64,000 bases of DNA from Candidatus Limnocylindrales bacterium (GCA_038214255.1 JBBQRZ010000007.1:36730-100729), one strand, 5' to 3'; shown: positions 27,386 through 54,497, counted from the stretch's first letter. Notes: generated by a model not told the origin, from the letters alone. Numbers and translations: made by a program.

Positions 27386-29845
27386 TCAGGACCGCAGCCG
27401 GGACATCTCCGGATCGAACAGGGGATCGGCGGCCACCGTCGCGGGCAGGGTCTCCCCGAAGTACTGGACCTGGACCGTCTGCCCCGGATTGGCCAGCTCG
27501 GCGGGCAGCCAGGCGTAGGCGATCGGCGCCCCGATGCTGTAGCCGTAGGCCGCACTCGTGACATAGCCGACCGGCTGACCGTCCACGAGGACCGGCTCCT
27601 TGCCCATCACGACCGCATCCGGGGCGCTGAAGGTCAGCGCTACGAGCCGTCGGGTTGCCGTCGCATCGCTGCGGTCGACGAGCGCGTCGCGACCGACGAA
27701 CGGGCCCTTGTCCATCCGGACGGCAAAGCCCAGCCCGGCCTCATAGGGGTCGTTCTCGGTCGTCATGTCGGCGCCCCACGAGCGGTACCCCTTCTCGAGG
27801 CGCAGGCTGCCGAACGCGCTGCGCCCGGCCGCGATGAGCCCGTGTTCCCGGCCCGCGGCCCAGAGCGTGTCCCACAGCTTGAGGCCCATGTCCGCGGTCG
27901 TGTACAGCTCCCATCCGAGCTCGCCGACATACGACAGGCGGAGCGCCGTGACCGGCACGTTGCCGACCCACAGCTCGCGACCCTTGAAGTAGCCGAGACC
28001 CGCATTCGAGACATCGGCATCGGTCAGGGACGCGAGGATGTCCCGGGCGCGCGGCCCCCACAGGCCGATGCAGCACGTGCCCGCCGTGATGTCACGGACC
28101 TGCACGCTGCCGTCATTCGGGGCGAGGCGCGCGAGCAGGGCGAAGTCGAGGTTGCCATTCGCCCCGATCTGGAACCGATCCGGCCCAAGGCGCGCGATCG
28201 TCAGGTCGCTCCGGATGCCGCCCCGCTCGTCGAGCATGAGCGTGTACACGACCGTGCCGACGGACCGGTCCAGGCGGTTCGTCGTGAGCCGGTCGAGGAA
28301 CGCCAGCGCGCCCGGCCCGGTGACCTCCAGGCGCTTGAGTGAGGTCATGTCGTACAGGCCGGCCGTGTCGCGCGTGGCCCGGGCCTCGGCGCCCGCGATC
28401 GGATTCCAGTAGCGGCTCGCCCAGGCGTTGCGGCCCGGGATCTCGTAGCGCCCGAGGAGCTGCTCGTTGACGCCGTACCAGTGGGGTCGCTCCCACCCGT
28501 TGCCCTCCAGGAAGTACGCGCCGAGCTCCTGCTGGCGCTCGTTGAAGGGCGACACCCGGAGCGGCCGCGGATGCTCCATGGGCTGGAGCGGATGGATGAT
28601 GTCGTAGACCTCGATGTAGTTCTGGATGCCCCGCTCGCGGATGTAGGCGGGCGCCAGCTGGTGCGGCTCGAAGCGGTTGATGTCGCACTCGTGGAGGTCG
28701 GTCGGTGAGCCGCCGTCGACCAGCCACTCGGCCATCGCCCTTCCCACGCCGCAGCCGTGGGTCACCCAGACCGCCTCGGCCAGCCAGAATCCTCCGACGT
28801 CCTTTGACTCGCCCATGAGTGGTGCCCCGTCCGGGGTGAACGAGAAGATGCCGTTGATGCCCTCGGCGATCCGCACGCCGTCGCCGCGCAGGGCCGGGAC
28901 GATCGCCTGGGCCCAGCGCCACGACTCCTCGAACGTCTCAGGCGTGAACTCGAGCACCGATGGCATCACCGGCGCCTCGCTCGGAGGGAGGATCGTGGCG
29001 GCATCGATCGGCATCGGCTGGTGCGCGTAGGAGCCGACCCCGAGCCGGTCGACATGCTCGCGGAAGTACAGGTCGCGGTCCTGGGCACGGATGATCGGGT
29101 GGACGTTCTCGCGGTCGGGCGGGATCGCGAGGGCGGCGAGCTCTGGCAGTGGCGTCGATGTCGTGTACTGATGGGCGAGTGGCTGGAGCGGCACCGTCAC
29201 TCCGACCATCGCCCCGATTCGCGGACCCCAGACGCCGGCCGCGCACACGACGATGTCGGCCGCGAACTCGCCCTGGTCGGTGATGACCGCGTGGACCTTG
29301 CCGTCATCGGTGCGGATGCCGGTCACCGTGTGCTCGCCGAGGAACCGGGCCCCGCCCTCGGTCGCGCGGCGGGCCTGGGCCTCCGAGACGCGCACCGCCT
29401 TGACGAGGCCATCGGTCGGGACGTGATAGGCGCCGAGGATCGTGTCGCGGTCGACCAGCGGCCAGAGCCGCGCGGTTTCGGCCGGATCGATGACCCGGCC
29501 CTCGATGCCCCAGGCCTCGGCGAAGCCCTGGCGGCGATGCAGCTCCCGGAGGCGGTCGTCGGTGAGCGCGAACTCCAGGCTGCCGACCTGGTTGAAGACC
29601 CAATCGCCGTCGAGCGTGAGCGACTTCGATTTCTCGACCGTGTACCGGGCGAACTCGGCCATCGTCCTGGAGGGGTTGGTCTGGAACACGAGCCCGGGGG
29701 CGTGGGACGTGGAGCCTCCGGCCGCGAACAGCCGGCCCTGGTCGAGGACGGTCACGTCGGTCCAGCCGCGCATGACGAGCTCGTCGGCCAGCGAGCAGCC
29801 GACGATGCCGGCTCCGATGATGACGACGCGCGGTCCGCTGGCCAA
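27386..29845 (-). CDS. Dimethylglycine oxidase-type flavoenzyme (DAO domain + GcvT-like folate-binding domain)
   Basis: TTG start preceded by GGAGG. MASGPRVVIIGAGIVGCSLADELV...GGSTSHAPGLVFQTNPS is near-colinear with the Arthrobacter DMGO N-terminus as I recall it. The C-terminal LSYVGELGWELY/LRLEKGY blocks are aminomethyltransferase-like. Confidence 0.85.
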   Translation of the reverse strand: MASGPRVVIIGAGIVGCSLADELVMRGWTDVTVLDQGRLFAAGGSTSHAPGLVFQTNPSRTMAEFARYTVEKSKSLTLDGDWVFNQVGSLEFALTDDRLRELHRRQGFAEAWGIEGRVIDPAETARLWPLVDRDTILGAYHVPTDGLVKAVRVSEAQARRATEGGARFLGEHTVTGIRTDDGKVHAVITDQGEFAADIVVCAAGVWGPRIGAMVGVTVPLQPLAHQYTTSTPLPELAALAIPPDRENVHPIIRAQDRDLYFREHVDRLGVGSYAHQPMPIDAATILPPSEAPVMPSVLEFTPETFEESWRWAQAIVPALRGDGVRIAEGINGIFSFTPDGAPLMGESKDVGGFWLAEAVWVTHGCGVGRAMAEWLVDGGSPTDLHECDINRFEPHQLAPAYIRERGIQNYIEVYDIIHPLQPMEHPRPLRVSPFNERQQELGAYFLEGNGWERPHWYGVNEQLLGRYEIPGRNAWASRYWNPIAGAEARATRDTAGLYDMTSLKRLEVTGPGALAFLDRLTTNRLDRSVGTVVYTLMLDERGGIRSDLTIARLGPDRFQIGANGNLDFALLARLAPNDGSVQVRDITAGTCCIGLWGPRARDILASLTDADVSNAGLGYFKGRELWVGNVPVTALRLSYVGELGWELYTTADMGLKLWDTLWAAGREHGLIAAGRSAFGSLRLEKGYRSWGADMTTENDPYEAGLGFAVRMDKGPFVGRDALVDRSDATATRRLVALTFSAPDAVVMGKEPVLVDGQPVGYVTSAAYGYSIGAPIAYAWLPAELANPGQTVQVQYFGETLPATVAADPLFDPEMSRLRS

Positions 29846-29928
29846 TCAGCCGCCTCCGATCCTGCCGAAGATGGGAAGCGACGACGGGCGGGGGCCCGGC
29901 GTCGCCGGTGGTCGGATCCCTCAGCGAG

Positions 29929-30972
29929 CTACTGGGCGGGCATCCACGCGGACCAGACGGTCGGGTTGGCCGTGACCCACTGCTTCGCGGCATCCTCGGG
30001 ACTCATGCTCTTGTTCGTGATGAGGTCCGCGACGTTGTTCTGGTCCGTGTTGCCCCACTTGAAGTTCTTGATGAACGTGGCGGCCTTCCCGCCCGTCTCG
30101 GCGAACTTCGTGGCGACGATCTTGTTGAGGATGTAGGGCGGGTAATCGCACGCGACGGCCTTGAGGTCCTTGTCGCAGCCCGGCGTGTACGGCGGGAGCT
30201 TGACCTGCACCAGCTTGATCTCGTTGTGCAGCCATTGCGGGTCGTAGAAGTAGCCGATGAGTGGCGTCTGGTTCTTGGTTGCTTCCTGGAAGGCCGTGAT
30301 CGTCGCCGCCTCGCTGCCCGAGAAGACGACCTTGTAGTTCAGCTTCAGGTTGGCGATGAGCGCCTCGTCGTACTGGACGAAGGTCGGGTCGCTCCCGAGG
30401 AACTGGCCCTTGTCGCCCGACTCGGAGGTCTTGAACAGGTCGGCGTACTTGTTGAGGTTGTTCCAGTCGGTGATGTCTGGGTACTTGTCGACCATCCACT
30501 GCGGGACGTACCAGCCGATGATGCCGGTGACCCCGTTGGGCCCGTCGTCCTGGGCGACCTTCTTGTCCGTGATGTAGGTCTTCTCGAGGTCGGGATGGCC
30601 CCAGTTCTCGAGGATCACGTCGACTTCGCCGGTGTCGAAGCCCTGCCAGGCGACCTCCTCGGCGAGCGTGTTGGTCTCGACCTTGTAGCCGAGCTGCTGG
30701 AGCAGGCACTGGGCCACGGCGACGTTCGCCTGGGCACCGACCCACTGGTTGATCATGAGCTTGGCGGTTCCCTGGTCGCCCGCGCCCGTGCACGTCACCT
30801 CCGATGCGGCGCTCGGGGAAGCGCCCGTGCTCGCTTCGGCGCTCGCGGCCGCGCTCGCCCCGGCGCTCACCACGGGCGCGGCACTCCCGCCGCCTCCGCT
30901 GCTACACGCGCCGAGGACCAGGGACATGATCGCGGCACCGGCGAGCAGCCGGGCCAGTCGCTTGTGTTCCAT
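29929..30972 (-). CDS. Glycine betaine/quaternary amine ABC transporter substrate-binding lipoprotein (OpuAC/ProX-like)
   Basis: The internal Met at 30972 gives the lipoprotein signal MEHKRLARLLAGAAIMSLVLGAC. Body blocks INQWVGAQANV, GIIGWYVPQW and YDPQW are OpuAC-like. Confidence 0.85.
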   Translation of the reverse strand: MEHKRLARLLAGAAIMSLVLGACSSGGGGSAAPVVSAGASAAASAEASTGASPSAASEVTCTGAGDQGTAKLMINQWVGAQANVAVAQCLLQQLGYKVETNTLAEEVAWQGFDTGEVDVILENWGHPDLEKTYITDKKVAQDDGPNGVTGIIGWYVPQWMVDKYPDITDWNNLNKYADLFKTSESGDKGQFLGSDPTFVQYDEALIANLKLNYKVVFSGSEAATITAFQEATKNQTPLIGYFYDPQWLHNEIKLVQVKLPPYTPGCDKDLKAVACDYPPYILNKIVATKFAETGGKAATFIKNFKWGNTDQNNVADLITNKSMSPEDAAKQWVTANPTVWSAWMPAQ

Positions 30973-31000
30973 CGTTGTTCGCTCCTCCAAAGTCAGCCGG

Positions 31001-32929
31001 TCAGCCGGCCCTCGCGACGGTTCGGCGGCGCCCTCCCGCGCCTTGGGTGATCCGGTCGAGCATGATCCCGATGAGCACGATCGCCGTCCCTGCGGCGAGC
31101 CCCTTTCCGAAATCGGTCCCCTGCGCGAATCCGGTGACGACGTCATAGCCTAGCGCCCCCGCCCCAACGAGCCCGCCGATGACGACCATCGCCAGGACGA
31201 GCACGATCCCTTGGTTCGCGGCGACGAGCAGCGCTCGGCGTGATAGCGGCAGCTGGACCTTCCAGAGCAATTGTCGTTCGGTCGAGCCACACGCGGTCGC
31301 TGCCTCCAGCACGGTCTTGGACACGGACCGGATCCCGGCATCCACGAGCCGGATCACGGGCGGCACGGCGTAGATTACGGCCGCCACGATCGCGGTGAAC
31401 CGACTCGGGGCGAACAGCGCGATCGCGGGGATGAGATAGACGAACGCGGGCATCGTCTGGGCCGCGTCGAGGATCGGTCGCAGCACGGTCCGGAGCCGGT
31501 CGCTGCGCGCCGACAGGATGCCGACGACGACGCCCAGGACGAGCGTGATGAGCGTCGCGACGAGGACGGACGCGAGGGTCTGCATCGAGTGGTTCCACAG
31601 ACCGAGGAGGACGACGATCCCGAGGCAGACGCCGGCGGTGATCGACGCCCGCCGACCGGAGACGTACCAGGCCACCAGGACGACCACGGCCACGACCAGC
31701 CACCAGGGCGCCGTCGTCAGGACGGTTTCGAGGGGGTTCAGGACGGCGAACGTGAAGACATTCTTGATGGCCAGGGTCAGGCCGGAGAACGTGCCGGTGA
31801 TCCAGTGGACGATGTCGTTCACCGGCACCCGGAACGAGACGGTCACGGCCTTGGGGAACACGGTCGGCTTCGTGAGGACATGCCCCGCGACGACGATCGC
31901 GGCGATCGCGGCGAGGATCGCGCCGTAGAGGATCCGCCGGCGACGCGGATCCTCGTCATCCGAGCGCCGGAACCTTGGGTCCATCCATTCCCCGGCGTGC
32001 TCGGTGAGACGGTCGAGCACGATGGCGAGGATCACGATGGCGAGGCCGGCGTCGAAGGCCCCGCCGACGTCGACCTTGGAGAGGGCCTGGAGGATGTTCC
32101 GACCCAGGCCCGGCGCCCCGATGAGGCCGGTGATGACCACCATCGAGAGGGCCATCATGATCGTCTGGTTGACCCCGATCCCGATCGTCCGGCGCGCGAG
32201 CGGCAGCTGCACCTTGCTCAGGACCTGCCAGCCGGTCGAGCCGAGCGAGGTGGCCGCCTCGACCGTTTCCTTCTCGACGCCCCGGATCCCGAGCGAGGTG
32301 ATCCGGATCGCGGGCGGGATGGCGTAGATGAGGGTGGCGATCGTCGACGATGGCGCGCCGATGAGGAACAGCAGCGTCATCGGCGCGAGATAGGCGAACG
32401 TCGGCATGATCTGCATGACGTCGAGGATCGGGGTGACGATCGACGACAGTCGGTCGCTGCGGCCGACCATGATCCCGAGCGGGATCCCGATCAACAGCGA
32501 GATCACGACGGCCGCGAGCATCAGGCCAAGGGTGGCCATGCTCGCGTCCCACAGGCCGAGCACCCCGAGCGCCGCGAAACCGATCACGCACAGGATCGCG
32601 AGGCGCACCCCGCCGAAGATGAGCCCGAGACCGCCGGCAAGCGCCAGGACGCCGGGCCAGCCAAGGAACGCGAGCGCGCCGTTGAAGCCGTCAACCAGGG
32701 CGGCGATGCCGATCCGGATCGGATCGAGCACCGTGCGGTTCTGATCGACCGCCTGCTTGACCCCGTTGAGTGCCTTGAAGAGCGGGAAGTCCTGGTCGTG
32801 GGGGAGGGTCCACTGACCCCGGAACAGGATGAACAGGAGCACGACGACCGCGGCCAGGACAGCCGCGAGGAGCCGTTTCGCCAGGACGGGGTCGAGGCGC
32901 CGGCTGGCCGGCAGGCTGATGGCCGTCAC
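31001..32929 (-). CDS. Glycine betaine/proline ABC transporter permease, fused double-permease (OpuAB/ProW-like)
   Basis: 642 aa with two repeats of the BPD permease core, each with EAAxxxG-type loops ([13 protein letters not shown] and [13 protein letters not shown]). Its GTG overlaps the ATPase stop (GTGA). Confidence 0.9.
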
Positions 32930-33987
32930 GTCTCGACGTCCTCCGCACCGGCGATGGCCGTAAGGATCTGACGCCGATCGACGACCCCGATCAACCGATC
33001 GCCGTCCAGGACGCGAATCGGCTTGTCCGTGGCGGCGGCCACGTGGACGGCCGTTCGGATCACCGTCGTCGCCGGGAATGACGGGCCGTCCAGGGCGTCA
33101 TCCGGGGTCGGGTCGCGCATGACCCAGCGGAGCGTGAGGACGTTGGCCTTCGGAACGTCCTGCACGAAGTCGGCGACGTAGTCGTCGGCCGGGGCGCCCA
33201 CGAGGTCCTCGGGCCGTCCGGCCTGGACGATGTACCCGTCGCGCATGATCACGATGTGGTCGCCGAGCTTGAGGGCCTCGGCGAGATCGTGGGTGATGAA
33301 CACCATCGTCTTGCCGACCTCGTGATGCAGCCGGAGTACCTCGCTCTGCATGTCGCGGCGGATCAAGGGGTCGAGGGCGCTGAACGGCTCGTCGAAGAAC
33401 ATGATCTCGGGATCGACCGCCAGCGCCCGGGCCAGGCCCACCCGTTGCTGCATCCCGCCCGAGAGCTGGTCGGGATAACTGTTCGCGTGACCCTTGAGTC
33501 CGACGAGGTCGATCATCTTCTGGGCCTTCTCGTGCCGGGAGGCCTTGGGCTCGCCGCGGATCTCGAGGGGATAGGCCACGTTGTCGATGACCCGACGATG
33601 GGGCAGCAGTCCGAAGTGCTGGAAGACCATGGAGAACCGATGCCGGCGCAGTTCGCGGAGCCGCTCGTCGTCCGCCTTGCGCACGTCCTCGCCATCGAGG
33701 AGCACCTCGCCGTCGGTGGGCTCGATGAGGCGGGTGATGCACCGGACGAGCGTCGACTTGCCGCTGCCGGACAGCCCCATCACGACGAAGACTTCGCCGG
33801 GCTTGACCTCGAACGAGACGTCGCGGATCGCGATCATGGACCCGGTCTTGGCCCGTAGCTCGTCGCGCGGGAGGTCGGCGTCGGGCGTCCCGATGATCTT
33901 GTGTTCGGCGGGACCGAAGACCTTCCACAGGTGCCGGACGGCGAGCGTCGGCGTACCCGGACCGGTGTCGCCTCGGGGTGGATCCAT
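32926..33987 (-). CDS. Glycine betaine/proline ABC transporter ATP-binding protein with C-terminal CBS pair (OpuAA/ProV-like)
   Basis: [24 protein letters not shown] and [10 protein letters not shown]. The C-terminal ~110 aa are CBS-like. ATG at 33987 (or GTG at 33999). The upstream part of the track ORF looks non-coding. Confidence 0.9.
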
Positions 33988-34018
33988 CGTCGCCGTGACG
34001 CCGTCACTCAACCTGGTC

Positions 34019-35488
34019 TCACCCTCCGAACCAGCCCGTCGGCCCCGGTGCCGTGTTCTGCCAGATGTGCTTGGCCTCACGGTACTCGTCCAGCCCGCTG
34101 GGGCCAAGTTCCCGGCCGATCCCCGACTGCTTGAAGCCGCCCCATTCCGCCTGCGGCAGGTACGTGTTGTAGTCGTTGATCCAGACCGTTCCGTGGCGCA
34201 GCCGCCCGGCGACCCGCTGGGCGCGCGACGCATCGGCGGTCCAGACCGCGCCGGCGAGGCCGTAGGTCGTGTCGTTGCCCAGCTCGATCGCCTCCGCCTC
34301 GGTCGAGAAGCGCTCGACGGTCAGCACGGGCCCGAAGACCTCGTCGCGCACGATCCGCATGTCGCGCCGAACCTCGGCGAAGACGGTCGGCCGGTAGTAG
34401 AAGCCGGTTTGTAGCTGCGGCTCGTCCGGCCGCCGGCCGCCGGCGACGAGGCGCGCGCCATCCTCCAGCGCGCGCGCCACATGCGCCTCGACCTTGGCCC
34501 GATGCGCCTCGGAGATCAGGGCTCCGGTCTCGGTCGCCTCGTCCGTGCCGGCGCCGAGGCGGATCCGGTCGGCTCGCTTGGCGATCGAGGTTACGAACCG
34601 GTCGTAGATCTTGTCCTGCACGATCGCCCGGCAACCGGCGCTGCAGACCTGGCCGGAATGGACGAACGCCGCCGTCAACGCGTTGTCGACGGCTGTCTCG
34701 AAGTCCGCGTCGGCGAAGATGATGTTCGGGCTTTTGCCACCGAGCTCCAGGGCGACCCGTTTGACGTTGATCGCGGCGCCGCGCATGAGCGCCCGTCCGG
34801 CTTCGAGGCCGCCGGTGAGGGAGATGAGATCGACGTCCGGTGAGTCGCCGAGAGCCTGTCCGACCCGCTCGCCCGGGCCGAGCACGAGGTTGACGACGCC
34901 CGGCGGCGTGCCGGCCTCCTCGAGCAGGTGGGCCAGGTGGATCGCCGTGAGCGGCGTGACCTGGGCGGGCTTCATGATCACCGTGTTGCCGGCGGCCAGC
35001 GCCGGAGCGACCTTCCAGGACAGCTGGAGCAGCGGGTAGTTCCACGGGGCGATGAGCCCGCACACGCCGACCGGCTCGTAGACGATGCGCGAGAGGGCGT
35101 TCCACAGCGAGGTGTCGACGAGCCGCCCGGCCTCCTTGTCGGCGAGGTCGGCGTAGTAGCGGAAGACGCGGGCGACCTCGGCGATGTCCGTGCGGCTCTC
35201 GCGCATGGCCTTGCCCGTGTTCCGGGTCTCCTCGAGCGCCATCGGCTCCAGGTCGCGATCGAGGAGGTCGGCGACTCGATCGAGCAGCGCGGCGCGTTCG
35301 GCGGTCGGGCTGCGAGGCCAGTCGGTCTGATCGAACGCGCCCCGGGCGGCAGCGATCGCGGCCTGGACCTGCTCGTCGGTGGCGACGTCGACCTCGGTGA
35401 CGAGCGTGCCGTCCGATGGGTTGACGACCGGGCTGCACGAGCCGTCGCCGGAAGCCACCCATTGACCGTCGATGAGCAGGCTGGGCAC
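34019..35488 (-). CDS. NAD(P)-dependent aldehyde dehydrogenase (betaine-aldehyde dehydrogenase-like by context)
   Basis: ALDH blocks [11 protein letters not shown] and [11 protein letters not shown] (catalytic Cys). GTG at 35488 is preceded by GAGGAG. Confidence 0.85.
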
Positions 35489-35634
35489 GGGACTCCTCGG
35501 CGTTCCGTTTCGTCGGGTCGGGCGAGAATGGGCCGCACAAGGGCGCGCAGTCAAGGCGTGTCGCGCTGGCCGCGCGGCCCCGTCCCTCCCAACCTACCGC
35601 CAGGCCGAACCGATCGCGAAGAAGGAATGAGGAG

Positions 35635-36072
35635 ATGCCGCTCACCGGAGAGTACGAACCGAGCACGGCCGCCTGGGCGCGCAAACAGGCCGAGCGCTAC
35701 GAGGCGACCGCTGGCGCCGAGGCCGGCGATCTCCGCGGCCGACCCGTGATCGTGCTGACCTCAGTCGGAGCGAAGACCGGCAAGCTCCGCAAGACCGCGC
35801 TCATGCGCGTCGAACACGAGGGCCGCTACGCGGTCGTGGCGTCGATGGGCGGCGCCCCAAAGCACCCCGTCTGGTACTACAACCTCAAGAAGAACCCGCA
35901 CGTCGAGCTGCAGGATGGCCCAACGAAGCGCGACTACGCGGCGCGCGAGGTTACGGGCGACGAAAAGGCCGTCTGGTGGGAGCGCGCTGTGGACGCGTGG
36001 CGCGACTACGCGAGGTACCAGACAAGGACAGCTCGGCAGATTCCCGTCTTCGTGCTCGAACCGATGAAGTGA
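35635..36072 (+). CDS. Deazaflavin (F420)-dependent nitroreductase/FDOR-A family protein
   Basis: [48 protein letters not shown] is the hallmark of the Ddn-like split beta-barrel family. Confidence 0.85.
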
Positions 36073-36100
36073 TCGGAAGCATGGCGACAGGCGAGGGCCG

Positions 36101-37018: not shown

Positions 37019-37035
37019 GGTGAACGTGCCGGCGA

Positions 37036-37581: not shown

Positions 37582-37592
37582 GGTCCCGTTGC

Positions 37593-38174: not shown

Positions 38175-38351
38175 CGGTGGTATCCCCGCATGTGGCTGCC
38201 CGGTGACGGAATGCGCCGGGAAATCGCTGGTTTGACGACCCCATGGGACCGCACCAACGACGTAGGCGGCTACAGGACTAGAGGGCCGGCGGCCGTGGGA
38301 CCTTCGTCCCGGCGAGACCGCGCGGGGTTGGCTCGCGCTACGCTGCGCGGC

Positions 38352-43436: not shown

Positions 43437-43473
43437 GTGTCACGTACCCTTCCGCGACGCCGAACCGTGCGTT

Positions 43474-44690: not shown

Positions 44691-44691
44691 G

Positions 44692-45888
44692 ATGAGGCGT
44701 TCCGGGATCGCGCTGATCGCCGCGCTGCTGGTGGCGGGATGCAGCAGCCAGCTCAGCGCTCCGATTTCGGGAGCGCTGGCGCCGGCGACGGCGCACGCGA
44801 AGCTCGAACCTGCGGTCGCGTCCGTCTCGGCGGCGAGGGCGGCGTCGGTCTCGGCGGGGACGAAGGTGCAGGGCGCCGCCCAAGCGTCGATCGCCGCCGC
44901 CCCCACGATCGAGCAGCTGATCGGCCAGAAGCTCGTCGTCCGCATGGATGGAATCACCCCGAGTGCCGACCTCCTCGCCCGGATCCGACGCGGTGAAATC
45001 GGGGGCGTCATCCTGCTTGGCTTCAACATCACGACCCCGTCCGCCCTGATCGCGCTCACCGCGAAGCTCCGCGCGGCCGCGGCGGCCGGAGGCCAGCCCA
45101 AGCTCCTGATCGCGGTGGACCAGGAGGGCGGCCCGATCAAGCGGATCCCGTGGGCACCGCCGACGCTATCGCCGACCCAGATGGGCCGGATCGGACTGGC
45201 AGCAACGGCCCGCGCGCAGGGCACGAGCACCGGCGCGGCGCTCCACGGCCTCGGCATCAACGTCGACCTCGCCCCGGTCGCCGACGTTCCGGCCTCCACC
45301 GCGTCGTTCATATACCGCGGCGGCCGGACCTTCTCGTTCAGCTCGGCGCGGACGGCCGTCCTGGCCGATGCGTTCGCATCCGGGCTCGAGTCGAAGGGCG
45401 TCCTCCCGGCGATGAAGCACTTCCCGGGGCTCGGGTTCGCGACGCACAACACCGACGGGTTCGTGGTCACGATCGGGGCCTCTCGGGGGGCGCTCGCCCC
45501 CGGCCTGCGCCCCTACCGAACCGCGATCGGACACCAGATCCCGCTGATCATGCTGTCCAACGCCACGTATTCCGCCTACGACGCCGGGCATCCGGCCGGC
45601 TGGTCGCACACCATCTCCGTCGCCCTGCTGCGCCGGGACCTCGGCTTCACCGGCGTGACGATCAGCGACTCCCTCGACGGCACGGCCCATGCCCGCGGGC
45701 TGCCGCCTGGCTTGTTGGCGTTCCGCGCGGCCTATGCCGGGACCGACATGATCCTGATGACCGGCTCGGAAGCCTCGACTCGGGCGGCGCACGCGACGCT
45801 CCTCGCGCATGCCAAGAGCGGCTCGCTCTCGCCGGCGACGCTGCGAACGTCGTACGACCGGATCCTCGCGCTCAAGGCCCGTCTCTGA
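44692..45888 (+). CDS. Glycoside hydrolase family 3 N-terminal-domain lipoprotein (NagZ-like beta-N-acetylhexosaminidase)
   Basis: Lipobox LLVAGC. IGQKLVV, VDQEGGPIKR, GINVDLAPVADV and KHFPGLG blocks. Confidence 0.85.
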   Translation: MRRSGIALIAALLVAGCSSQLSAPISGALAPATAHAKLEPAVASVSAARAASVSAGTKVQGAAQASIAAAPTIEQLIGQKLVVRMDGITPSADLLARIRRGEIGGVILLGFNITTPSALIALTAKLRAAAAAGGQPKLLIAVDQEGGPIKRIPWAPPTLSPTQMGRIGLAATARAQGTSTGAALHGLGINVDLAPVADVPASTASFIYRGGRTFSFSSARTAVLADAFASGLESKGVLPAMKHFPGLGFATHNTDGFVVTIGASRGALAPGLRPYRTAIGHQIPLIMLSNATYSAYDAGHPAGWSHTISVALLRRDLGFTGVTISDSLDGTAHARGLPPGLLAFRAAYAGTDMILMTGSEASTRAAHATLLAHAKSGSLSPATLRTSYDRILALKARL

Positions 45889-46322: not shown

Positions 46323-46356
46323 ACCACGGCCGCGGGCCATGCGCGCGCCGGCCGCC

Positions 46357-46401: not shown

Positions 46402-46423
46402 GCGCCGCCCGGCGCAAACGACC

Positions 46424-47173
46424 TCAGGTGTGACGCAGTCCCGCGGCGACCCCCGCCGCCGTCGCGACCACCTGTTCCGCGACGGCAGCCTCGCGGCCGG
46501 CGGTCGGGAATCGGTACGACGGCCCGTGGAGGTGGACCGCTGCCACGACCTCGCCCGACGCATCGGCGACGGGCGCGGCGATCGACGAGATCCCCGGGTC
46601 GAACTCCTCGAGCGCCCAGGCGTACCCGTCACGCCGGATCTCGCGGAGCCGCTCCTGCAGCAAACCAGGGTCCGTCATGGTCCGCGGCGTGAACTGTTCG
46701 AGCGGCCCCTCGAGGTACCGCTCGATCGCGGCCGGTGGCCGGAACGCGAGCAGCACCTGACCCGACGACACCGCGTGAAGCGGCACCCGCGACCCGGTCC
46801 AGTCGCGCACCGACACCGGGTTCGGCGTGTCCACCTGGTCGATGTAATGGGCCATGTCCCCGTCCGGGACGGACAGGCCGGCGGCCTCGCCGACCGCGTC
46901 GGCCAGATTCCGCAGCCCGGGTCGGGCCAGTGCCGCCAATGACCGCGCGGGGGTCAGCCCGACGGCCAACGTCGCGAGCCGGGGCCCCAGGCGGTAGTGC
47001 GTGTCGCCCGGCACCTGCTCAACGACCCCTTCGTGGGCCAGCGAGGCGAGCAGGCGCGCGGCCGTCGACTTGGGCAGGGCAGCCCGCTCGGCGACCTCGG
47101 TGACCCCGATCGGCCCCGCGGCGAGGACGCCAAGCACCGCAAACGCGCGTTCGATCGATTGGACTCTGGACAC
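46424..47173 (-). CDS. IclR family transcriptional regulator
   Basis: SIERAFAVLGVLA..GPIGVTEVAERAALPKSTAARLLASL HTH plus a C-terminal effector domain. Divergent from the corrinoid cassette. Confidence 0.9.
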   Translation of the reverse strand: MSRVQSIERAFAVLGVLAAGPIGVTEVAERAALPKSTAARLLASLAHEGVVEQVPGDTHYRLGPRLATLAVGLTPARSLAALARPGLRNLADAVGEAAGLSVPDGDMAHYIDQVDTPNPVSVRDWTGSRVPLHAVSSGQVLLAFRPPAAIERYLEGPLEQFTPRTMTDPGLLQERLREIRRDGYAWALEEFDPGISSIAAPVADASGEVVAAVHLHGPSYRFPTAGREAAVAEQVVATAAGVAAGLRHT

Positions 47174-47206
47174 GGCACCCCTTGTCCGCTAGATTCGGCT
47201 TCTCGC

Positions 47207-47243
47207 GGTTCCATCATACGGTACGGTTCCACGATATGGAACC
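47207..47243. promoter_or_regulatory. Three GGTTCCA half-sites: one direct copy (47207-47213) plus a perfect palindrome GGTTCCA-cgata-TGGAACC (47225-47243); candidate IclR operator
   Basis: Read directly, in the 106-bp divergent spacer between the IclR gene and the corrinoid protein gene. Confidence 0.5.
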
Positions 47244-47279
47244 TCCCGCGACGACTTCTCCTCTGCGGAGCCAACGGAC

Positions 47280-47967
<688 letters not shown>

Positions 47968-47987
<20 letters not shown>

Positions 47988-48651
47988 ATCCTCGGGCCCG
48001 CGCCGCGCCGCGAGGGGCAGCGCCCCACGGGTCCTGATCGTCGGCTGCGGTGCGCTGGCCAATGAGCTCGTCGCGCTGACCCGCGATCTCCCGAACGTCG
48101 ATATCACCTGCCTGCCGGCGACCCTGCACAACCGTCCCGGCGGCATCCCGGCCGCCGTCCGTGACCGGATCCACCGGCGCCGGGCCGACTACGACCGCGT
48201 GTTCGTCGCGTATGCCGACTGCGGCACCGGCGGCCTGCTCGACCACGTGATCGAGGAGGAAGGCGTCGAACGCCTGGCCGGCGCCCATTGCTACCAGTTC
48301 TACGCAGGCGGCGCGGCATTCGACCGCCTCGTCGAGGAGGAGCCGGCGACGTTCTTCCTGACCGACTTCCTCGCCCGCAACTTCGACCGGCTCGTGATCA
48401 AGGGCCTCGGGCTCGATCGACACCCCGAGCTGCTCGACGCCTACTTCGGGAACTATCGCCGCCTCGTGTACCTCGCCCAGACCGACGAACCGGCGCTCGT
48501 CGCCGCCGCCCGGCGCGCTGCCCGGCGGCTCGGCCTCGCCTTCGAGGTCCGCCAGACCGGCCTCGGCGAGCTCGGCTCGACGATCGCGGCGGTCACCGCC
48601 GGCCTGCCGGCCCCGGCCGTCGTCTCTGTGCTCGACATCGGAGGACGCTAG
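47968..48651 (+). CDS. DUF1638 domain protein
   Basis: VLIVGCGAL...YADCGTGGLLD...HCYQFY...FFLTDFLARNFD matches my recollection of DUF1638. GTG at 47968 overlaps the upstream gene by 20 nt; the start is uncertain. Confidence 0.7.
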
Positions 48652-48655
48652 CGCC

Positions 48656-49009
48656 GTGGCCTTCATCACCGTCATCTGGTGGCGCGACATCCCGGCCCAG
48701 GTCACGGCCCGCGAGGGCCGTCGCCAGAGCAAGGAAGTGCTCCACCCGCGCTTCCAGGTCGCGATCGACAAGGCGGCAAGCCGCGCGGGCAAGCGCGCCT
48801 ACGGCGAATACATCGAGGAGTGGCGCCGGGTGCAGCGGCCGTGCGGCGACGACATCGAGGCCGAGGTCGCCGCCGAGGTCGCCCGCCTCGAGGCCGATTA
48901 CGACAAGCACCGCCTCGCCCAGCTCATCCAGTCGGGCGGCGTCGACGGCGGTCCGATCTTCCCGCCAGCCCAGGACGAAACCCAGGGCAAACCGACGGTG
49001 GACGCATGA
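48656..49009 (+). CDS. Small conserved protein of corrinoid-methyltransferase clusters (resembles proteins annotated 'virulence factor' domain)
   Basis: 117 aa, GTG start, MAFITVIWWRDIPAQVTA... The family name is recalled from similar gene clusters and is not verified. ATGA coupling to the next gene. Confidence 0.55.
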   Translation: MAFITVIWWRDIPAQVTAREGRRQSKEVLHPRFQVAIDKAASRAGKRAYGEYIEEWRRVQRPCGDDIEAEVAAEVARLEADYDKHRLAQLIQSGGVDGGPIFPPAQDETQGKPTVDA

Positions 49010-49983
49010 CCCGGACCGTCATCGGCTCGGCGACGCGCGAGGTCGTCATCGCGGACGATCGCCCGTTCGTGATCATCGGCGAGCGGATCAACCCCACCGG
49101 TCGGAAGGTTCTCATGGAGGAGATGAAGGCCGGGGACTTCAGTCGGGTTGAACGCGACACCATCGCCCAGGTCGAGGCCGGCGCCCAGATGCTCGACGTC
49201 AATGCCGGGATCCCGCTCGCGGACGAGCCGGCGATCCTCGCCCAGACGATCCAGCTCGTCCAGTCGCTGACCGACGTGCCGCTGTCGATCGATTCCTCGA
49301 TCGTCGAGGCGCTCGAAGCGGGCCTCGCGGTCTACCGCGGCAAGGCGCTCCTCAACAGCGTCACCGGGGAGGAGGAGCGGATGGAGCGCGTCCTTCCGCT
49401 CGTCAAGAAGTACGGCTGCGCGGTCGTCGCGATCAGCAACGACGAGACCGGGATCTCGATGGATCCCGACGTCCGTTTCGGGGTCGCCAGGCGGATCGTC
49501 GAGCGCGCGGCGGACTACGGGATCCCGCGTGAGGACATCATCGTGGATCCGTTGCTCATGCCGATCGGCGCGCTGTCGGGGGCGGGCCGTCAGGTCTTCC
49601 GGATCCTCGGGCGCCTGCGCGACGAGCTCAAGGTCAACTCGACCTGCGGCGCATCCAACGTCAGCTTCGGGCTACCCAATCGCGAGGGCATCAATGGCGC
49701 CTTCCTGTCGATGGCGATCGCATCGGGCCTGACCTCGGCCATCACGAATCCCATCGCCGAAGGCGTCCGCCACGCGGTCCTGGCGAGCGACGTCCTGATG
49801 GGCAACGACCAGGACGCGACGCGCTGGATCAAGGCCTTCCGGGTCACCCCACCCGAGGGCGAGGCCGGCGGGCGACGGGTGAACCGTCGCCGTGGCCCGG
49901 GCGCCGGGCCCGGAGCCCCGGTCCTCAGCGCCGACGTGCCCGGCGTGGATGTCCCCGGTCTCGACGTGCCGGCCCTCGACTGA
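49006..49983 (+). CDS. Methyltetrahydrofolate:corrinoid methyltransferase (pterin-binding TIM barrel, MtgA/AcsE/MetH-domain-like)
   Basis: IIGERINPTGRK, MLDVNAG, LSIDSS, LLNSVTGEE and CGASNVSFGLPNR blocks are typical of the pterin-binding domain. Confidence 0.9.
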   Translation: MTRTVIGSATREVVIADDRPFVIIGERINPTGRKVLMEEMKAGDFSRVERDTIAQVEAGAQMLDVNAGIPLADEPAILAQTIQLVQSLTDVPLSIDSSIVEALEAGLAVYRGKALLNSVTGEEERMERVLPLVKKYGCAVVAISNDETGISMDPDVRFGVARRIVERAADYGIPREDIIVDPLLMPIGALSGAGRQVFRILGRLRDELKVNSTCGASNVSFGLPNREGINGAFLSMAIASGLTSAITNPIAEGVRHAVLASDVLMGNDQDATRWIKAFRVTPPEGEAGGRRVNRRRGPGAGPGAPVLSADVPGVDVPGLDVPALD

Positions 49984-49999
49984 TCGGGTCCATGCCCGG

Positions 50000-52075
50000 A
50001 TGACAGCCCCGACCGCTCCAACCGATCCCCAGATCATCTTCACTCCGTCGGGAAGACGCGGTCGAGCGCCGGTCGGGACCACCCTGCTGGATGCGGCGCG
50101 GACCCTCGGCGTCGACATCGACTCGGTCTGCGGCGGGCGCGGGATCTGCGGCCGCTGCGCCGTGACGCCCGGCTTCGGATCGTTCGCCAAGCACGGGATC
50201 ACCTCCGCGCCCGACCACCTGTCGGCGCTCGGCGAGGTCGAGGCGGCGTATCGCACCGAGAACGGCCTCGCCGCCGACCGCCGCCTGTCATGCACCGCCG
50301 AGCTGCTGGGCGACCTCGTCGTCGACGTCCCGCCCGAGAGCCAGGTCCACCGCCAGGTCGTGCGCAAGGACCTCGACGCCCGGCCGTTCGTCCTGGACCC
50401 GGTCGTGCGTCTCCACACCGTCGACGTCGTCCCGCCCGACCTCGCGACGCCCACCGGCGACCTCGGCCGGCTGTTCGACGCGCTGCGGAGCGAGTGGCAG
50501 CTCGACGGCTTGCGCGCCGACCTCGCCGTGGTCAGGGCGCTCCAGCCGGCGCTCACCAGTGGCGACTACCGCGTGACCGTGGCCGTCCACGGCGGCCGCG
50601 ACGTCATCGCGGTCTGGCCCGGGTTCCACGACCGCGCCTTCGGGGTCGCGATCGATGTCGGCTCGACGACGATCGCCGGCCACCTCGCCAACCTGGGCGA
50701 CGGCACGATCCTGGCGAGCGCCGGGGTCATGAACCCGCAGATCCGGTTCGGCGAGGACCTCATGAGCCGCGTCTCGTACGTGATGATGCACGAGGGTGGC
50801 GAGGTGGAGCTGACCGCCGCGGTCCGCAAGGCGCTCGACGGGCTGCTCGCGACGCTCGGGAATCGGGCCGGCATCAAGCGCTCGGAGATCCTCGAGCTCG
50901 CCATCGTCGGCAACCCGATCATGCACCACCTCCTCCTGGGCATCGACCCGACCCCGCTCGGCTCGGCGCCGTTCGCCCTCGCGACCGACACCGCCGTCCA
51001 CACCACGGCCGCCGAGCTCGGCGTGCGCGCGCATCCGGGCGCCCGCGTGTACCTGCTGCCGTGCATCGCCGGCCATGTCGGGGCCGACACCGCCGGGGTC
51101 ATCCTCGCCGAGGAGCCGCACAAGGCCGAGGCGATGACCCTCGTCGTCGACGTCGGCACGAACGCCGAGATCGTCCTCGGCGACAAGCGCCGCCTCCTCG
51201 CGGCGTCGAGCCCGACCGGCCCGGCGTTCGAGGGCGCCCAGATCAGCTCCGGCCAACGCGCGGCACCCGGCACGATCGAGCGGGTCCGCGTGGACGCGCA
51301 GACGCTCGAGCCACGGTTCCGGGTCATCGGCGTCGACGCCTGGTCGAACGATCCCGGGTTCGCTGCCGCGCTCGCGGCCGCCGGGACGGGAGTGACCGGC
51401 ATCTGCGGCTCGGGCATCATCGAGATCGTCGCCGAGCTGTACCTCGCGGGCGTCGTCACCGCCGACGGCGTCATCGATGGCGAGATGGCGGCCCGCACCC
51501 CGCGCGTCGTCGCCGATGGCCGGACCTTCAGCTACGTCCTGTACGAGCCGACCGACGGCGGGCCGCGGATCCTCGTCACCCAGAACGACATCCGGGCCAT
51601 CCAGCTGGCCAAGGCCGCGCTCTACGCCGGCTTCCGGCTGCTCATGGATCAGCTCGGCATCGACGCGGTCGACGAGGTGCGGCTGGCCGGGGCGTTCGGC
51701 AGCCAGATCGATCCGCTCCACGCGATGATCCTCGGGCTCATCCCCGACTGCGACCTCGGGCGTGTCCGGGCGGCGGGCAACGCGGCCGGGACCGGGGCGC
51801 TCATCGCGCTCCTGTCGGGCGCCGCCCGCACGGAGATCGAGCAGGTCGTCCGGCGGGTCGAGAAGATCGAGACCGCGGTCGAGCCGCGCTTCCAGCAGCA
51901 TTTCGTCGAGGCGATGGCCATCCCGCACCGGACGGCCGCCAACCCCAATCTCGAGCGGGCGGTCACGCTGCCGGCCCGCCCCGCGACCGCCGACCGCGGC
52001 GCGGACCCGCGAGCGGAGCGACGCCGGCGCCGAGCGGTCACGGCCGCATCGACCGGCCCGGGAGAAGACCGATGA
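50000..52075 (+). CDS. Corrinoid reductive activase (RACo/RamA-like: N-terminal 2Fe-2S ferredoxin + ASKHA ATPase, DUF4445)
   Basis: IIFTPSG..GTTLLDAARTLGVDIDSVCGGRGICGRCAV (plant-type ferredoxin). Later AIDVGSTTIAGHL, VVDVGTNAEIVLG and SPTGPAFEGAQIS are ASKHA phosphate motifs. Confidence 0.85.
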   Translation: MTAPTAPTDPQIIFTPSGRRGRAPVGTTLLDAARTLGVDIDSVCGGRGICGRCAVTPGFGSFAKHGITSAPDHLSALGEVEAAYRTENGLAADRRLSCTAELLGDLVVDVPPESQVHRQVVRKDLDARPFVLDPVVRLHTVDVVPPDLATPTGDLGRLFDALRSEWQLDGLRADLAVVRALQPALTSGDYRVTVAVHGGRDVIAVWPGFHDRAFGVAIDVGSTTIAGHLANLGDGTILASAGVMNPQIRFGEDLMSRVSYVMMHEGGEVELTAAVRKALDGLLATLGNRAGIKRSEILELAIVGNPIMHHLLLGIDPTPLGSAPFALATDTAVHTTAAELGVRAHPGARVYLLPCIAGHVGADTAGVILAEEPHKAEAMTLVVDVGTNAEIVLGDKRRLLAASSPTGPAFEGAQISSGQRAAPGTIERVRVDAQTLEPRFRVIGVDAWSNDPGFAAALAAAGTGVTGICGSGIIEIVAELYLAGVVTADGVIDGEMAARTPRVVADGRTFSYVLYEPTDGGPRILVTQNDIRAIQLAKAALYAGFRLLMDQLGIDAVDEVRLAGAFGSQIDPLHAMILGLIPDCDLGRVRAAGNAAGTGALIALLSGAARTEIEQVVRRVEKIETAVEPRFQQHFVEAMAIPHRTAANPNLERAVTLPARPATADRGADPRAERRRRRAVTAASTGPGEDR

Positions 52076-53613
52076 CCGAGACGTTGCCGACCCGCCGCAG
52101 CGGCGGTCGCGAAGGTCGGCGAGCCGTGCGCCTGAGCCACCAGGTCGAGCGGATGCCGTTCCTGACCCGGACGCTCGCCCCGTTCGAGGTCCTCAGCGAC
52201 GAGGGCCTCTCGATCCTCGAGCACAACGCCGACACGATCCTCGAAGAGGTCGGCGTCGAGTTCCGCGGCGACCCGGACGCCCTGCGGCTCCTGCGCGAGG
52301 GCGGCGCCGACGTCGAAGGTGAGCGGGTCCGATTCCCGCGCGGCATGTGCCGCCAGGTCGTCCAGGCAACCGCCCCGCGCCAGTTCACCCAATACGCACG
52401 GAACGAGGCGAACAACGTCGAGATCGGCGGGATGCACACGGTCTTTGCGCCCAACTACGGCTCGCCGTTCGTGCGCGATCTCGACCGCGGCCGGCGCTAC
52501 GGCACGATCGAGGACTTCCGCAACTTCGTGAAGCTCGCCTACATGAGCCCGCACCTCCACCACAGCGGCGGGACGGTGTGCGAACCGGTCGACGTGGCGG
52601 TCAACAAGCGCCACCTCGACATGGTCTATTCGCACATCCGCTACAGCGACAAGCCGTTCATGGGCTCGGTCACGGCACCCGAGCGGGCGCGCGATACGGT
52701 CGAGATGGCGCGCCTCACCTTCGGCGCGGACTACCTCGAGGATCACGCCGTGATCCTCTCCCTGATCACCGCCAACTCGCCACTCGTCTGGGACTCGACG
52801 ATGCTCGGCGCGGCGCGCGCCTACGCCGAGGCCAACCAGGCCACGCTGCTCACGCCGTTCATCCTGGCCGGAGCGATGGCCCCGGTCACCGCGGCCGCAG
52901 TCGCCGCCCAGACCCTCGCCGAGTCGCTCGCCGGGATGACGTTCGTGCAGCTCGTCCGGCCGGGCGCCCCGGTCGTGCTCGGATCGTTCGCCTCCTCGAT
53001 GTCGATGCAGTCGGGCGCGCCGACGTTCGGCACCCCGGAGCCCGCGCTCGTGCTCTACACGATGGCCGCGCTCGCCCGCCGGCTCGGCGTGCCGTTCCGG
53101 TCCGGTGGCTCGCTGTGCGCCTCCAAGGTGGCCGACGCACAAGCCGCCTATGAGAGCGCCGCGACCCTCCAGCCGACCGTTCTCGGCGGGGTGAACTTCG
53201 TGCTCCACGCGGCCGGCTGGCTCGAAGGCGGCCTCGCGGTCGGCTACGAGAAGTTCATCCTCGATGCCGACCAGTGCGGGATGATGGCCGTGTTCGTGAA
53301 GGGCGTCGACATGTCCGAGAACGGCCAGGCGCTCGACGCGATCCGGTCGAACGGCCCCGGCCAGCATTTCCTCGGCACGGCGCACACGTTCGCCAACTTC
53401 GAAACCGCCTTCTACCGCTCCGAGGTCGCCGACAACAACAGCTTCGAGCAGTGGCAGGAGGACGGCTCGCTCGACGCCGCCCAGCGCGCGAATGCGATCT
53501 GGAAGCGGATGCTGGCCGAGTACGAAGCACCGCCGCTCGAGCCCGCGATCGACGAGGCGCTCCTCGAGTTCATGGTCCGGCGCAAAGCGTCGATGCCGGA
53601 CTCCGAGGTCTAG
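52072..53613 (+). CDS. MttB-superfamily (trimethylamine methyltransferase family) enzyme, non-pyrrolysine type; likely quaternary-amine:corrinoid methyltransferase
   Basis: 513 aa uninterrupted (no in-frame TAG). LSDEGLSILEHNADTILEEVGVEF, ITANSPLVWD, FILAGAMAPVT, GAPTFGTPE and HFLGTAHT blocks are MttB-like. ATGA overlap with the activase gene. Confidence 0.85.
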   Translation: MTETLPTRRSGGREGRRAVRLSHQVERMPFLTRTLAPFEVLSDEGLSILEHNADTILEEVGVEFRGDPDALRLLREGGADVEGERVRFPRGMCRQVVQATAPRQFTQYARNEANNVEIGGMHTVFAPNYGSPFVRDLDRGRRYGTIEDFRNFVKLAYMSPHLHHSGGTVCEPVDVAVNKRHLDMVYSHIRYSDKPFMGSVTAPERARDTVEMARLTFGADYLEDHAVILSLITANSPLVWDSTMLGAARAYAEANQATLLTPFILAGAMAPVTAAAVAAQTLAESLAGMTFVQLVRPGAPVVLGSFASSMSMQSGAPTFGTPEPALVLYTMAALARRLGVPFRSGGSLCASKVADAQAAYESAATLQPTVLGGVNFVLHAAGWLEGGLAVGYEKFILDADQCGMMAVFVKGVDMSENGQALDAIRSNGPGQHFLGTAHTFANFETAFYRSEVADNNSFEQWQEDGSLDAAQRANAIWKRMLAEYEAPPLEPAIDEALLEFMVRRKASMPDSEV

Positions 53614-53618
53614 GTCCC

Positions 53619-54497
53619 GTGCTCTTTCGACGCCGCCGGTCGCTCTCGGCCGCGCAGTCGGCAGCCCTGGCGGGGGTGCTCCAGGCGCCGACGTTCGAGT
53701 TGATCCCGCTCAAGAACTCGCTCGATCAGGCCGCGCACCTGCCGGCCGGGGCGACGGTGTCGGTGACGGCCTCGCCGGCCAAGGGAATCGAGGCGACGGT
53801 CGCGCTGTGCGAGCAGCTCCAGGCCCTCGGCTTCCGCGCCGTCCCGCACGTCTCGGCGCGGATGATCCGGGACCGCGCCCACCTCGAGGACCTGATCGCG
53901 TGGCTCGAAGGCGCCGGGGTCGATCGGGCGTTCGTGGTCGGCGGTGACGCCAAGGAGCCGGGAGCCTACCCGGACGGCCTGGCATTGCTGCGCGAGATGG
54001 CCGAGATCGGTCATCCGCTCAGCGAGATCGGGATCCCCGGCTACCCGCAGGGCCATGCCTTCATCGCCGACGGCCCGCTCCTCGAGGCGCTGCGCGCCAA
54101 GGCCGCGTTCGCAAGCTACATGACGACCCAGCTCTGCTTCGACCCCACCGCGATCGCTCGCTGGCTTGCCGAGCGGCGGGCCGAGGGGATCATGCTGCCG
54201 GTGCACGTCGGCGTCCCCGGGGTGGCCGAGCCACAGAAGCTGCTCGCGATCGCCGCCCGCATCGGCGTCGCCGACACCCACCGGTTCCTCGTCAAGAACG
54301 TCCGATTCGTGACCCGCCTCGTGCGGTCCGGCGGCTTCTACCGGCCCGACGGCCTGCTCGAGGGCCTCGCGCCGTACGCCGCCGACCCGGCCGCCGCGAT
54401 CGTCAGCCTGCACCTCTACACGTTCAACGCGGTCGATGCGACCGAGGCCTGGCGGCGCGACTTCCTCTCGAAGCTGCCGGTGGCCGCGACAACCTGA
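53619..54497 (+). CDS. metF: Methylenetetrahydrofolate reductase (MetF-like)
   Basis: FELIPLKN, VSVTASP, VPHVSAR, FVVGGD, QLCFD and LHLYTFN blocks. GTG at 53619, 6 nt after the MttB stop. Confidence 0.8.
   Translation: MLFRRRRSLSAAQSAALAGVLQAPTFELIPLKNSLDQAAHLPAGATVSVTASPAKGIEATVALCEQLQALGFRAVPHVSARMIRDRAHLEDLIAWLEGAGVDRAFVVGGDAKEPGAYPDGLALLREMAEIGHPLSEIGIPGYPQGHAFIADGPLLEALRAKAAFASYMTTQLCFDPTAIARWLAERRAEGIMLPVHVGVPGVAEPQKLLAIAARIGVADTHRFLVKNVRFVTRLVRSGGFYRPDGLLEGLAPYAADPAAAIVSLHLYTFNAVDATEAWRRDFLSKLPVAATT

Follow-up and report, generated by a model that had tools for sequence, protein, structure and literature searches.

We analysed a window of 64,000 nucleotides (the whole stretch of DNA considered here) from a Candidatus Limnocylindrales bacterium, located at C7:36730-100729 of a 2.8-Mb assembly of 55 contigs with a G+C content of ~70%, for genes that could convert glycine betaine (hereafter betaine) to glycine. 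Open reading frame candidates were chosen by G+C content at the third codon position and then checked with profile (Pfam, NCBIfam) and PDB searches, which bore out all of the genes named in a preliminary description of this DNA, at or near the positions given there (Table 1). We identified three modules within 27 kb: a minus-strand block encoding an ABC importer, an aldehyde dehydrogenase (ALDH) and dimethylglycine oxidase (DMGO); a soxBDAG string encoding sarcosine oxidase; and a corrinoid cassette that includes a methyltransferase of the MttB superfamily and lies divergent from an IclR-family regulator. The best explanation of these genes, to which we give a probability of roughly 0.7, is a stepwise route in which betaine is demethylated to dimethylglycine by the corrinoid system, with DMGO and then sarcosine oxidase carrying out the second and third demethylations.

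Table 1. Features of the betaine neighbourhood, with positions counted from the first nucleotide of the window.
Feature	Position	Strand	Evidence
Dimethylglycine oxidase (FAD amine oxidase plus GcvT-type folate domain)	27386-29845	-	Pfam DAO, FAO_M, GCV_T, GCV_T_C
OpuAC-type glycine betaine binding protein	29929-31146	-	PF04069, 133.8 bits
ABC permease, two BPD_transp_1 domains	31001-32929	-	PF00528, two stretches
Importer ABC ATPase	32926-34233	-	PF00005; real start probably downstream of 34233
Aldehyde dehydrogenase	34019-35554	-	PF00171, 559.7 bits
SoxB, sarcosine oxidase beta subunit	38352-39581	+	TIGR01373, 625 bits, over cut-off 529
SoxD, delta subunit	39581-39823	+	PF04267, 118.8 bits
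SoxA, alpha subunit with GcvT folate domain	39817-42444	+	Pfam Fer2_4, SO_alpha_A3, GCV_T, GCV_T_C
SoxG, gamma subunit	42441-42986	+	PF04268, 70.5 bits
IclR-family regulator, divergent from cassette	46424-47173	-	PF01614, PF09339
Probable IclR operator	47208-47242	.	GTTCCATCATACGGTAC then palindrome GTTCCAC-GAT-ATGGAAC
Corrinoid (B12-binding) protein, MtgC-like	47280-47987	+	PF02310, PF02607
DUF1638 protein	47968-48651	+	PF07796, 100.9 bits
Methyl-corrinoid:tetrahydrofolate methyltransferase, MtgA/MtgD-like, pterin-binding	48679-49983	+	PF00809; NF005719, 343.6 bits, over cut-off 259
RACo/RamA-type ATP-dependent reductive activase of corrinoid proteins	49892-52075	+	Pfam Fer2, RACo_linker, Raco_middle, RACo_C_ter
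MttB-superfamily methyltransferase, non-pyrrolysine, probable glycine betaine:corrinoid methyltransferase (MtgB-like)	52072-53613	+	PF06253, 755.8 bits
Divergent MTHFR-like protein	53619-54497	+	Pfam MTHFR, 23.3 bits, below cut-off 24

The six genes of the corrinoid cassette (47280-54497) lie on one strand, and either overlap or are separated by minimal gaps. The corrinoid protein contains the DxHxxG His-on motif, in the form GDIHDIG, and its closest PDB entries are 1Y80 and MttC (7XCN_M). The DUF1638 protein belongs to a family that is accessory to corrinoid reactivation in related systems (PMC12478193). The component set of an aerobic MtgBCD system is complete within the cassette, comprising an MttB-family protein, a B12-binding protein with the DxHxxG motif, a pterin methyltransferase, RACo, DUF1638 and a dedicated methylenetetrahydrofolate reductase (MTHFR). 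The stand-alone corrinoid protein, DUF1638, the pterin methyltransferase and RACo each occur in one copy in the assembly, in all cases within the window.

The window MttB (513 aa) aligns with PF06253 over positions 1-500 of 500, contains no internal stop or amber codon, and belongs by sequence to the non-pyrrolysine branch of the MttB superfamily. Its closest solved relative is 4YYC (E 2.7e-218, 65% identity), followed here by MtgB, the characterised glycine betaine methyltransferase of Desulfitobacterium hafniense (2QNE/9YCE; E ~1e-122, 44% identity), and it is remote from the pyrrolysine-containing trimethylamine methyltransferase MttB 7XCL (E 1e-28). Four betaine contacts of MtgB were described in a 2026 study in the Journal of Biological Chemistry, with Y97 and F356 being the cation-pi partners of the betaine nitrogen, and R312 and H348 the contacts of its carboxylate (PMC13080624). 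We mapped these residues by alignment on the 9YCE sequence. Y97 is retained in the window MttB (PNYG, aligned with PGYG of D. hafniense MtgB), as are R312 and H348, although the latter two are also found in the paralogues L002 and L003 and thus do not discriminate between them. It is therefore plausible that the window MttB falls within the MtgB substrate class, with F356 as the one tested feature that is not retained.

The final gene of the cassette encodes a divergent MTHFR-like protein, to which the NCBIfam metF model is a weak match. Its nearest solved relative is PDB 7XG9 (E 3.5e-38), the S6MTHFR of Sphingobium lignivorans SYK-6, which is the founding type 4 MTHFR, oxidises methyl-tetrahydrofolate (CH3-THF), and is genetically coupled to tetrahydrofolate (THF)-dependent demethylases (PMC11868366). 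The window protein retains the catalytic residues E21, D107 and Q175 (S6MTHFR numbering). We additionally checked seven residues specific to S6MTHFR, namely L48, P49, F215, C219, P268 and F269 (loop beta2-alpha3, helix alpha8 and loop beta8-alpha11) and R78, of which P49 and F269 are kept. The protein would be predicted to oxidise CH3-THF, a direction that fits its genomic context.

For the later demethylations, we identified DMGO with an alignment over the full length (residues 1-818) of the Arthrobacter globiformis enzyme 1PJ5, at 1021.8 bits. The DAO, FAO_M, GCV_T and GCV_T_C architecture and the close similarity to a characterised enzyme over the full length are those expected of the family, and the product is, as judged from its sequence, a true dimethylglycine oxidase. 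All four subunit genes of heterotetrameric sarcosine oxidase, soxB, soxD, soxA and soxG, are present in a single string, with SoxB matching the solved beta subunit 2GAG_B at 708.7 bits, and SoxA matching TIGR01372 at 1024 bits, slightly below the cut-off of 1164. In the enzymes represented by 1PJ5 and 2GAG, both DMGO and sarcosine oxidase oxidise the amine by means of a flavin, with a GcvT-like domain for the capture by folate. The preliminary description had counted three mechanistically different demethylation modules; the chemistry of DMGO and sarcosine oxidase being the same, there are instead two mechanistic classes in three architectures.

The host is aerobic, because O2-dependent DMGO and sarcosine oxidase and the genes for heme A synthesis are present. 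The closest homologues of the window MttB (81-93% identity) were found in soil metagenome-assembled genomes (MAGs) labelled Candidatus Limnocylindrales or Chloroflexia, an affiliation that marks the host as an uncultured soil Chloroflexota bacterium (Ca. Limnocylindria), and no actinobacterium. The window ALDH has as its top NCBIfam model the betaine-aldehyde dehydrogenase TIGR01804 (588 bits, under the cut-off of 668.6). Choline dehydrogenase, for which the preliminary description had proposed a search, was found in a genome-wide profile search as BetA on contig C6, over its cut-off; inspection of the contig neighbourhood revealed no ALDH adjoining it, making the window ALDH the likely BetB of this host.

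These genes suggest the following route. Betaine would be imported by the OpuA-type ABC system or, alternatively, would be formed from choline via BetA and the window ALDH. The MttB-family enzyme, in a step that we infer, would take one N-methyl group from betaine, leaving dimethylglycine, and place it on the corrinoid protein in its Co(I) state. The pterin-binding methyltransferase would pass this methyl group from the corrinoid to THF, and the divergent MTHFR would convert the CH3-THF to methylene-THF (CH2-THF). RACo, probably with DUF1638, would re-reduce the corrinoid once oxidised to Co(II), and the cassette operon would probably be governed by an IclR repressor through the conserved palindrome. 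The second methyl group would be removed by DMGO and the third by the heterotetrameric sarcosine oxidase, with the carbon trapped as CH2-THF on the GcvT-like domains. Elsewhere in the genome, FolD and Fhs, which are encoded adjacently on contig C4, could convert the one-carbon units to formate with a gain of ATP.

We investigated the evolutionary distribution of the cassette in the best 80 MttB loci from GTDB species genomes, using the 54 of these loci that were at least 15 kb in length as the counting set. The gene order IclR, corrinoid protein, DUF1638, methyltransferase, RACo, MttB and MTHFR-like is the same across phyla, and cassettes were identified in Chloroflexota, Gaiellales, Acidimicrobiia (including Ilumatobacteraceae and Microthrix), an Acidobacteriota-labelled MAG and some Proteobacteria. 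Genes for the corrinoid protein and RACo adjoin MttB in 45 of the 54 long loci, an MTHFR-like gene is present in the cassette in 43, and the IclR gene occupies its cassette position in 39. At least one of the other modules was found within 10 kb in 23/54 loci (soxBDAG in eight, a DMGO-family gene in 18 and OpuAC in six), and in two close relatives (L011 and L035) the sox genes are immediately upstream of the cassette. Within the genus, orthologues of the cassette are common (82-91% identity), and the MttB paralogue classes recur. A sister family with small genomes is without any of the cassette, MttB paralogue, DMGO and SoxB genes.

The predicted regulatory site of the cassette is similarly conserved, with a two-part site, GTTCCAyCATACGG.AC followed by GTTCCAC-N3-rTGGAAC, preceding the corrinoid gene in loci of Chloroflexota, Acidimicrobiia and Gaiellales. 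In a search of the window and the genome, the operator palindrome GTTCCAC-N3-ATGGAAC occurred a single time, at the cassette promoter, from which we infer that the IclR regulator probably controls the cassette alone. A shared regulon of the three modules was considered and rejected, the palindrome being found only at this promoter. No Rfam family, riboswitches included, attained its gathering score within the window.

The import/DMGO block, the sox genes and the corrinoid cassette are separate transcription units, and not one operon, and are interrupted by unrelated genes. Between the first two lies the interval 35635-38244, with a gene of the F420H2-dependent quinone reductase family (PF04075) and a minus-strand secreted-protein/signal-peptidase module with a weak Peptidase_S24/signal-peptidase match; between sox and the cassette, a block at 43474-45888 encodes an ECF sigma factor, a DUF4232 protein and a GH3 hydrolase. 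Directly downstream of DMGO we observed a gene (23287-27249, minus strand) whose 1320-aa product is a signalling protein containing GGDEF, EAL and four GAF domains. The preliminary description had linked pabB-pabC to a heavy folate demand of the pathway. These genes are real, at 14597-17559, and their link to the pathway is one of proximity only; we rejected them as a part of the system, as they lie 10 kb off behind unrelated genes, with a peptidase, hypothetical genes, a Bax1-I protein and the large GAF-GGDEF-EAL protein intervening.

Several observations weigh against the proposed route. The closest solved relative of the window MttB, 4YYC, was deposited as a 'putative trimethylamine methyltransferase', and the F356 column is Gly in both proteins (HAAGWLEGG in the window MttB, vs HTAGILQYF in D. 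hafniense MtgB). The host genome contains four MttB genes (the window copy, L002, L003 and L004), and one of these, L002 on contig C12, is 64% identical to the window MttB, with the same Y, R and H kept and Gly at F356, such that sequence alone does not set the window copy apart. In the MTHFR-like protein, five of the seven residues specific to S6MTHFR are replaced (L48 to Ser, R78 to Met, F215 to Ile, C219 to Ile and P268 to Thr). The cassette operator was not found at the sox and opu promoters in the window and genome search. Within the genus, true DMGO (at least 72% identity) was found in only ~4 genomes, and window-type SoxB (at least 78% identity) in only two or three. A Rieske oxygenase of the quaternary-amine clade, with GbcA as its top NCBIfam model, is encoded on contig C45, and the host MAG is ~89% complete, so that the missing 11% limits the absence of rival demethylases. 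The preliminary description had assigned the three steps to MttB, DMGO and sarcosine oxidase, and the core of this assignment survives the whole-genome test, with the substrate of MttB remaining a prediction.

The sporadic occurrence of the exact DMGO and sox orthologues, set against a cassette that is common in the genus, leaves a strict co-inheritance of the modules within the genus unsupported. The window neighbourhood is therefore one particular assembly of mobile catabolic modules, and not a fixed unit. We additionally observed a 40%-identical SoxB paralogue 6-7 kb from L003-type MttB in at least 10 genomes of the genus. A second soxB/soxD-like pair, ~40% identical to the window genes, is present in the host at C23:461-3261, with counterparts in relatives G001, G005, G006, G009, G010, G012, G017 and G021-G024; the pairs near L003-type MttB suggest another corrinoid-plus-oxidase demethylation pathway.

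The MttB paralogues bear most directly on the strongest alternative, in which the window MttB acts on another quaternary amine (proline betaine, carnitine, gamma-butyrobetaine, choline or other), L002 demethylates betaine via the shared cassette, and the proximity of DMGO, sox and opu merely reflects a general methylated-amine region. We consider this unlikely. The presence of four paralogues, the residues that L002 shares with the window copy, and the variation of sox and DMGO within the genus while the cassette stays all speak for it, as does the lack of conservation of the aromatic pair in MttB members with other substrates (PMC13080624). However, the window copy has the highest identity to D. 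hafniense MtgB (43.7%, vs 40.0% and 38.0% for the paralogues), its orthologues in other phyla adjoin sox, DMGO-family or OpuA genes, and the contexts of L002 and L003 hint at other betaines. L002 has as neighbours a StcD/DgcA-like enzyme with Oxidored_FMN and Pyr_redox domains, an IclR gene, an aromatic amino-acid lyase and a peptide-type ABC system. L003, which is 40% identical to the window MttB and is without Y97, is accompanied by an ALDH, an HpbD-like protein of the enolase superfamily and another DAO-FAO_M-GcvT enzyme. Stachydrine and hydroxyproline-betaine catabolism use StcD and HpbD, and these contexts suggest candidate proline-, hydroxyproline- or histidine-betaine routes. The fourth copy, L004, is 27% identical to the window MttB and is without all four betaine residues.

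Both L002 and L003 are situated in a second methylated-amine region (C12:5900-24500, locus L095), with the peptide-type ABC importer between them and no corrinoid protein nearby. The corrinoid protein, methyltransferase and RACo of the window being the sole set in the genome, all of the MttB paralogues therefore presumably share the corrinoid protein, methyltransferase 2 and activase of the window cassette.

A non-corrinoid betaine demethylase encoded elsewhere, either the C45 Rieske oxygenase or a protein on contig C26 acting as a true betaine-homocysteine S-methyltransferase (BHMT), with the cassette serving other substrates, seems to us more improbable still. The preliminary description had correctly noted that neither BHMT nor the Rieske-type GbcAB is found in the window, and had proposed that the genome be searched for both. 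No protein of the genome exceeds the GbcA cut-off (NF058607, 670 bits), the best match being 211.5 bits, and the same was true in all 41 genomes surveyed (0/41), consisting of the host genome and 40 of the same genus or order. The C45 protein does have GbcA as its top model, and 3N0Q, Stc2 (3VCA) and CntA (6Y8J) as its best PDB matches, but it attains only 211 bits against the 670 required, aligns over the N-terminal half only, and has no reductase partner visible on the short contig C45, where its neighbour is a stand-alone GcvT-like gene. The search for BHMT likewise returned a single stand-alone protein, the C26 homocysteine methyltransferase, for which the BHMT model NF005718 is the best NCBIfam match, but at 315.7 bits, under the cut-off of 338. 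It matches the homocysteine domain of MetH three times better than mammalian BHMT (203.5 bits for 1Q7M, vs 67.3 bits for 1UMY), and its context is uninformative. The 'Bhmt' of S. meliloti type has moreover been argued to represent MtgE, one module of a methionine synthase that is split, and no betaine demethylase (PMC12478193).

At C45:5456-7968 (locus L097), the stand-alone GcvT-like aminomethyltransferase is directly upstream of the Rieske oxygenase, and in this pair a folate trap may be coupled to oxidative N-demethylation. Rieske genes related to that of C45 were found repeatedly in the genus, and also in the sister family with small genomes, where they form tandem pairs.

Operation of the cassette mainly in reverse, as a split methionine synthase passing methyl groups from CH3-THF via the corrinoid to homocysteine through the MtgE-like protein of C26, with MttB as a side entry, is very improbable, as the genome encodes a full-length MetH (C15:14558-18529) and a fusion of homocysteine methyltransferase with MTHFR, the cassette lies in one transcription unit with MttB and with an MTHFR whose nearest relative oxidises CH3-THF, and the MtgE-like gene, which is the point in its favour, is unlinked to the cassette. 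The usual absence of classical MetH, which is a feature of split methionine synthases, thus does not hold here, even though an MtgE-like protein is present. We observed that MetH adjoins the fusion gene (YitJ-like) at C15:14558-20514, forming a biosynthetic pair that is separate from the catabolic cassette.

The proposed betaine route would also require a supply of corrinoids. CbiC, of de novo corrin synthesis, was not found genome-wide in the 89%-complete assembly, and CobS is present on contig C1, which suggests that the host possibly salvages corrinoids for MetH and for the Mtg cassette. We would tentatively extend this into a broader model, to which we give somewhat less than even odds, for aerobic soil Chloroflexota and Actinomycetota. 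Here an IclR-controlled hub operon would serve scattered substrate-specific MttBs, the MttB clade with HAAGW..GG in place of F356 would use another arrangement of aromatic residues to bind betaine, and the linked MTHFR-like proteins would be an additional subtype, one that oxidises CH3-THF for corrinoid demethylases; with no CbiC found, betaine turnover by these abundant soil lineages would depend on corrinoids from other organisms.

Betaine is a major osmolyte and a nitrogen-rich substrate in soils and in the sea. The window and around 50 syntenic loci extend the known host range of the system to uncultured soil and freshwater Chloroflexota (Limnocylindria) and to Actinomycetota (Gaiellales, Acidimicrobiia), and would tie soil betaine turnover to cobamide availability. 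The locus also provides a compact operon for biochemical work, with a conserved predicted operator and an unusual MTHFR.

Compared with known systems, the oxidases of the window are ordinary orthologues of A. globiformis DMGO (1PJ5) and of heterotetrameric sarcosine oxidase (2GAG, 1X31), which they match in domain and subunit architecture, with nothing notably different. The MTHFR-like gene resembles that of the type 4 enzyme S6MTHFR in being coupled to a demethylase that produces CH3-THF, although the partners of S6MTHFR are LigM, DesA or Dmt, and the partner in the window is an MttB-family corrinoid system.

Amongst other known systems, the MtgABC system of D. hafniense has the same TIM-barrel family, corrinoid partner and THF methyltransferase as that of the window. 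D. hafniense MtgB has F356, whereas the window MttB, like 4YYC, has Gly at this position and a Trp four residues before it; and D. hafniense ferments or respires dimethylglycine, whereas in the window oxidases lie downstream, in an aerobic host. In Eubacterium limosum, MtpB, MtcB, MtyB and MthB share one corrinoid protein (PMC12478193, PMC8604678), and the window host is similar in that several MttB paralogues appear to share one set of corrinoid protein, methyltransferase 2 and activase. It differs from E. limosum in being an aerobe of another phylum, in which the paralogues adjoin oxidase or dehydrogenase genes for later demethylations.

The closest known system is that of aerobic Ruegeria pomeroyi DSS-3, for which Mausz et al. 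(PNAS 2025) used proteomics and knock-outs to demonstrate betaine demethylation via MtgB, MtgC and MtgD, with MetF2, RamA and DUF1638 co-induced (PMC12478193). The same study reported that the genes frequently share a locus, in other bacteria, with those for dimethylglycine and sarcosine demethylation, and that genomes contain up to seven MttB paralogues; its subject is marine Proteobacteria, with no mention of Chloroflexota, and with Actinomycetota appearing only as 5% of reads (PMC12478193). In a survey of floodplain MAGs, mttB and mtgB genes had already been noted in Limnocylindria (PMC11264602). The window contains the same components as R. pomeroyi, with the same proposed flow from betaine to methyl-corrinoid, CH3-THF and CH2-THF. 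It differs in that the six genes are united in a single operon alongside an IclR regulator, with a soil Chloroflexota as the host, in that its MTHFR diverges from the S6MTHFR type to which it is related, and in that the nearest solved relatives of its corrinoid protein are of anaerobe type. The host furthermore has a classical MetH, so that a dual role in methionine synthesis, of the type found in R. pomeroyi, is not required. The aerobic B12-dependent betaine route was already published in 2025, and the window represents a new host for it, and not a new pathway.

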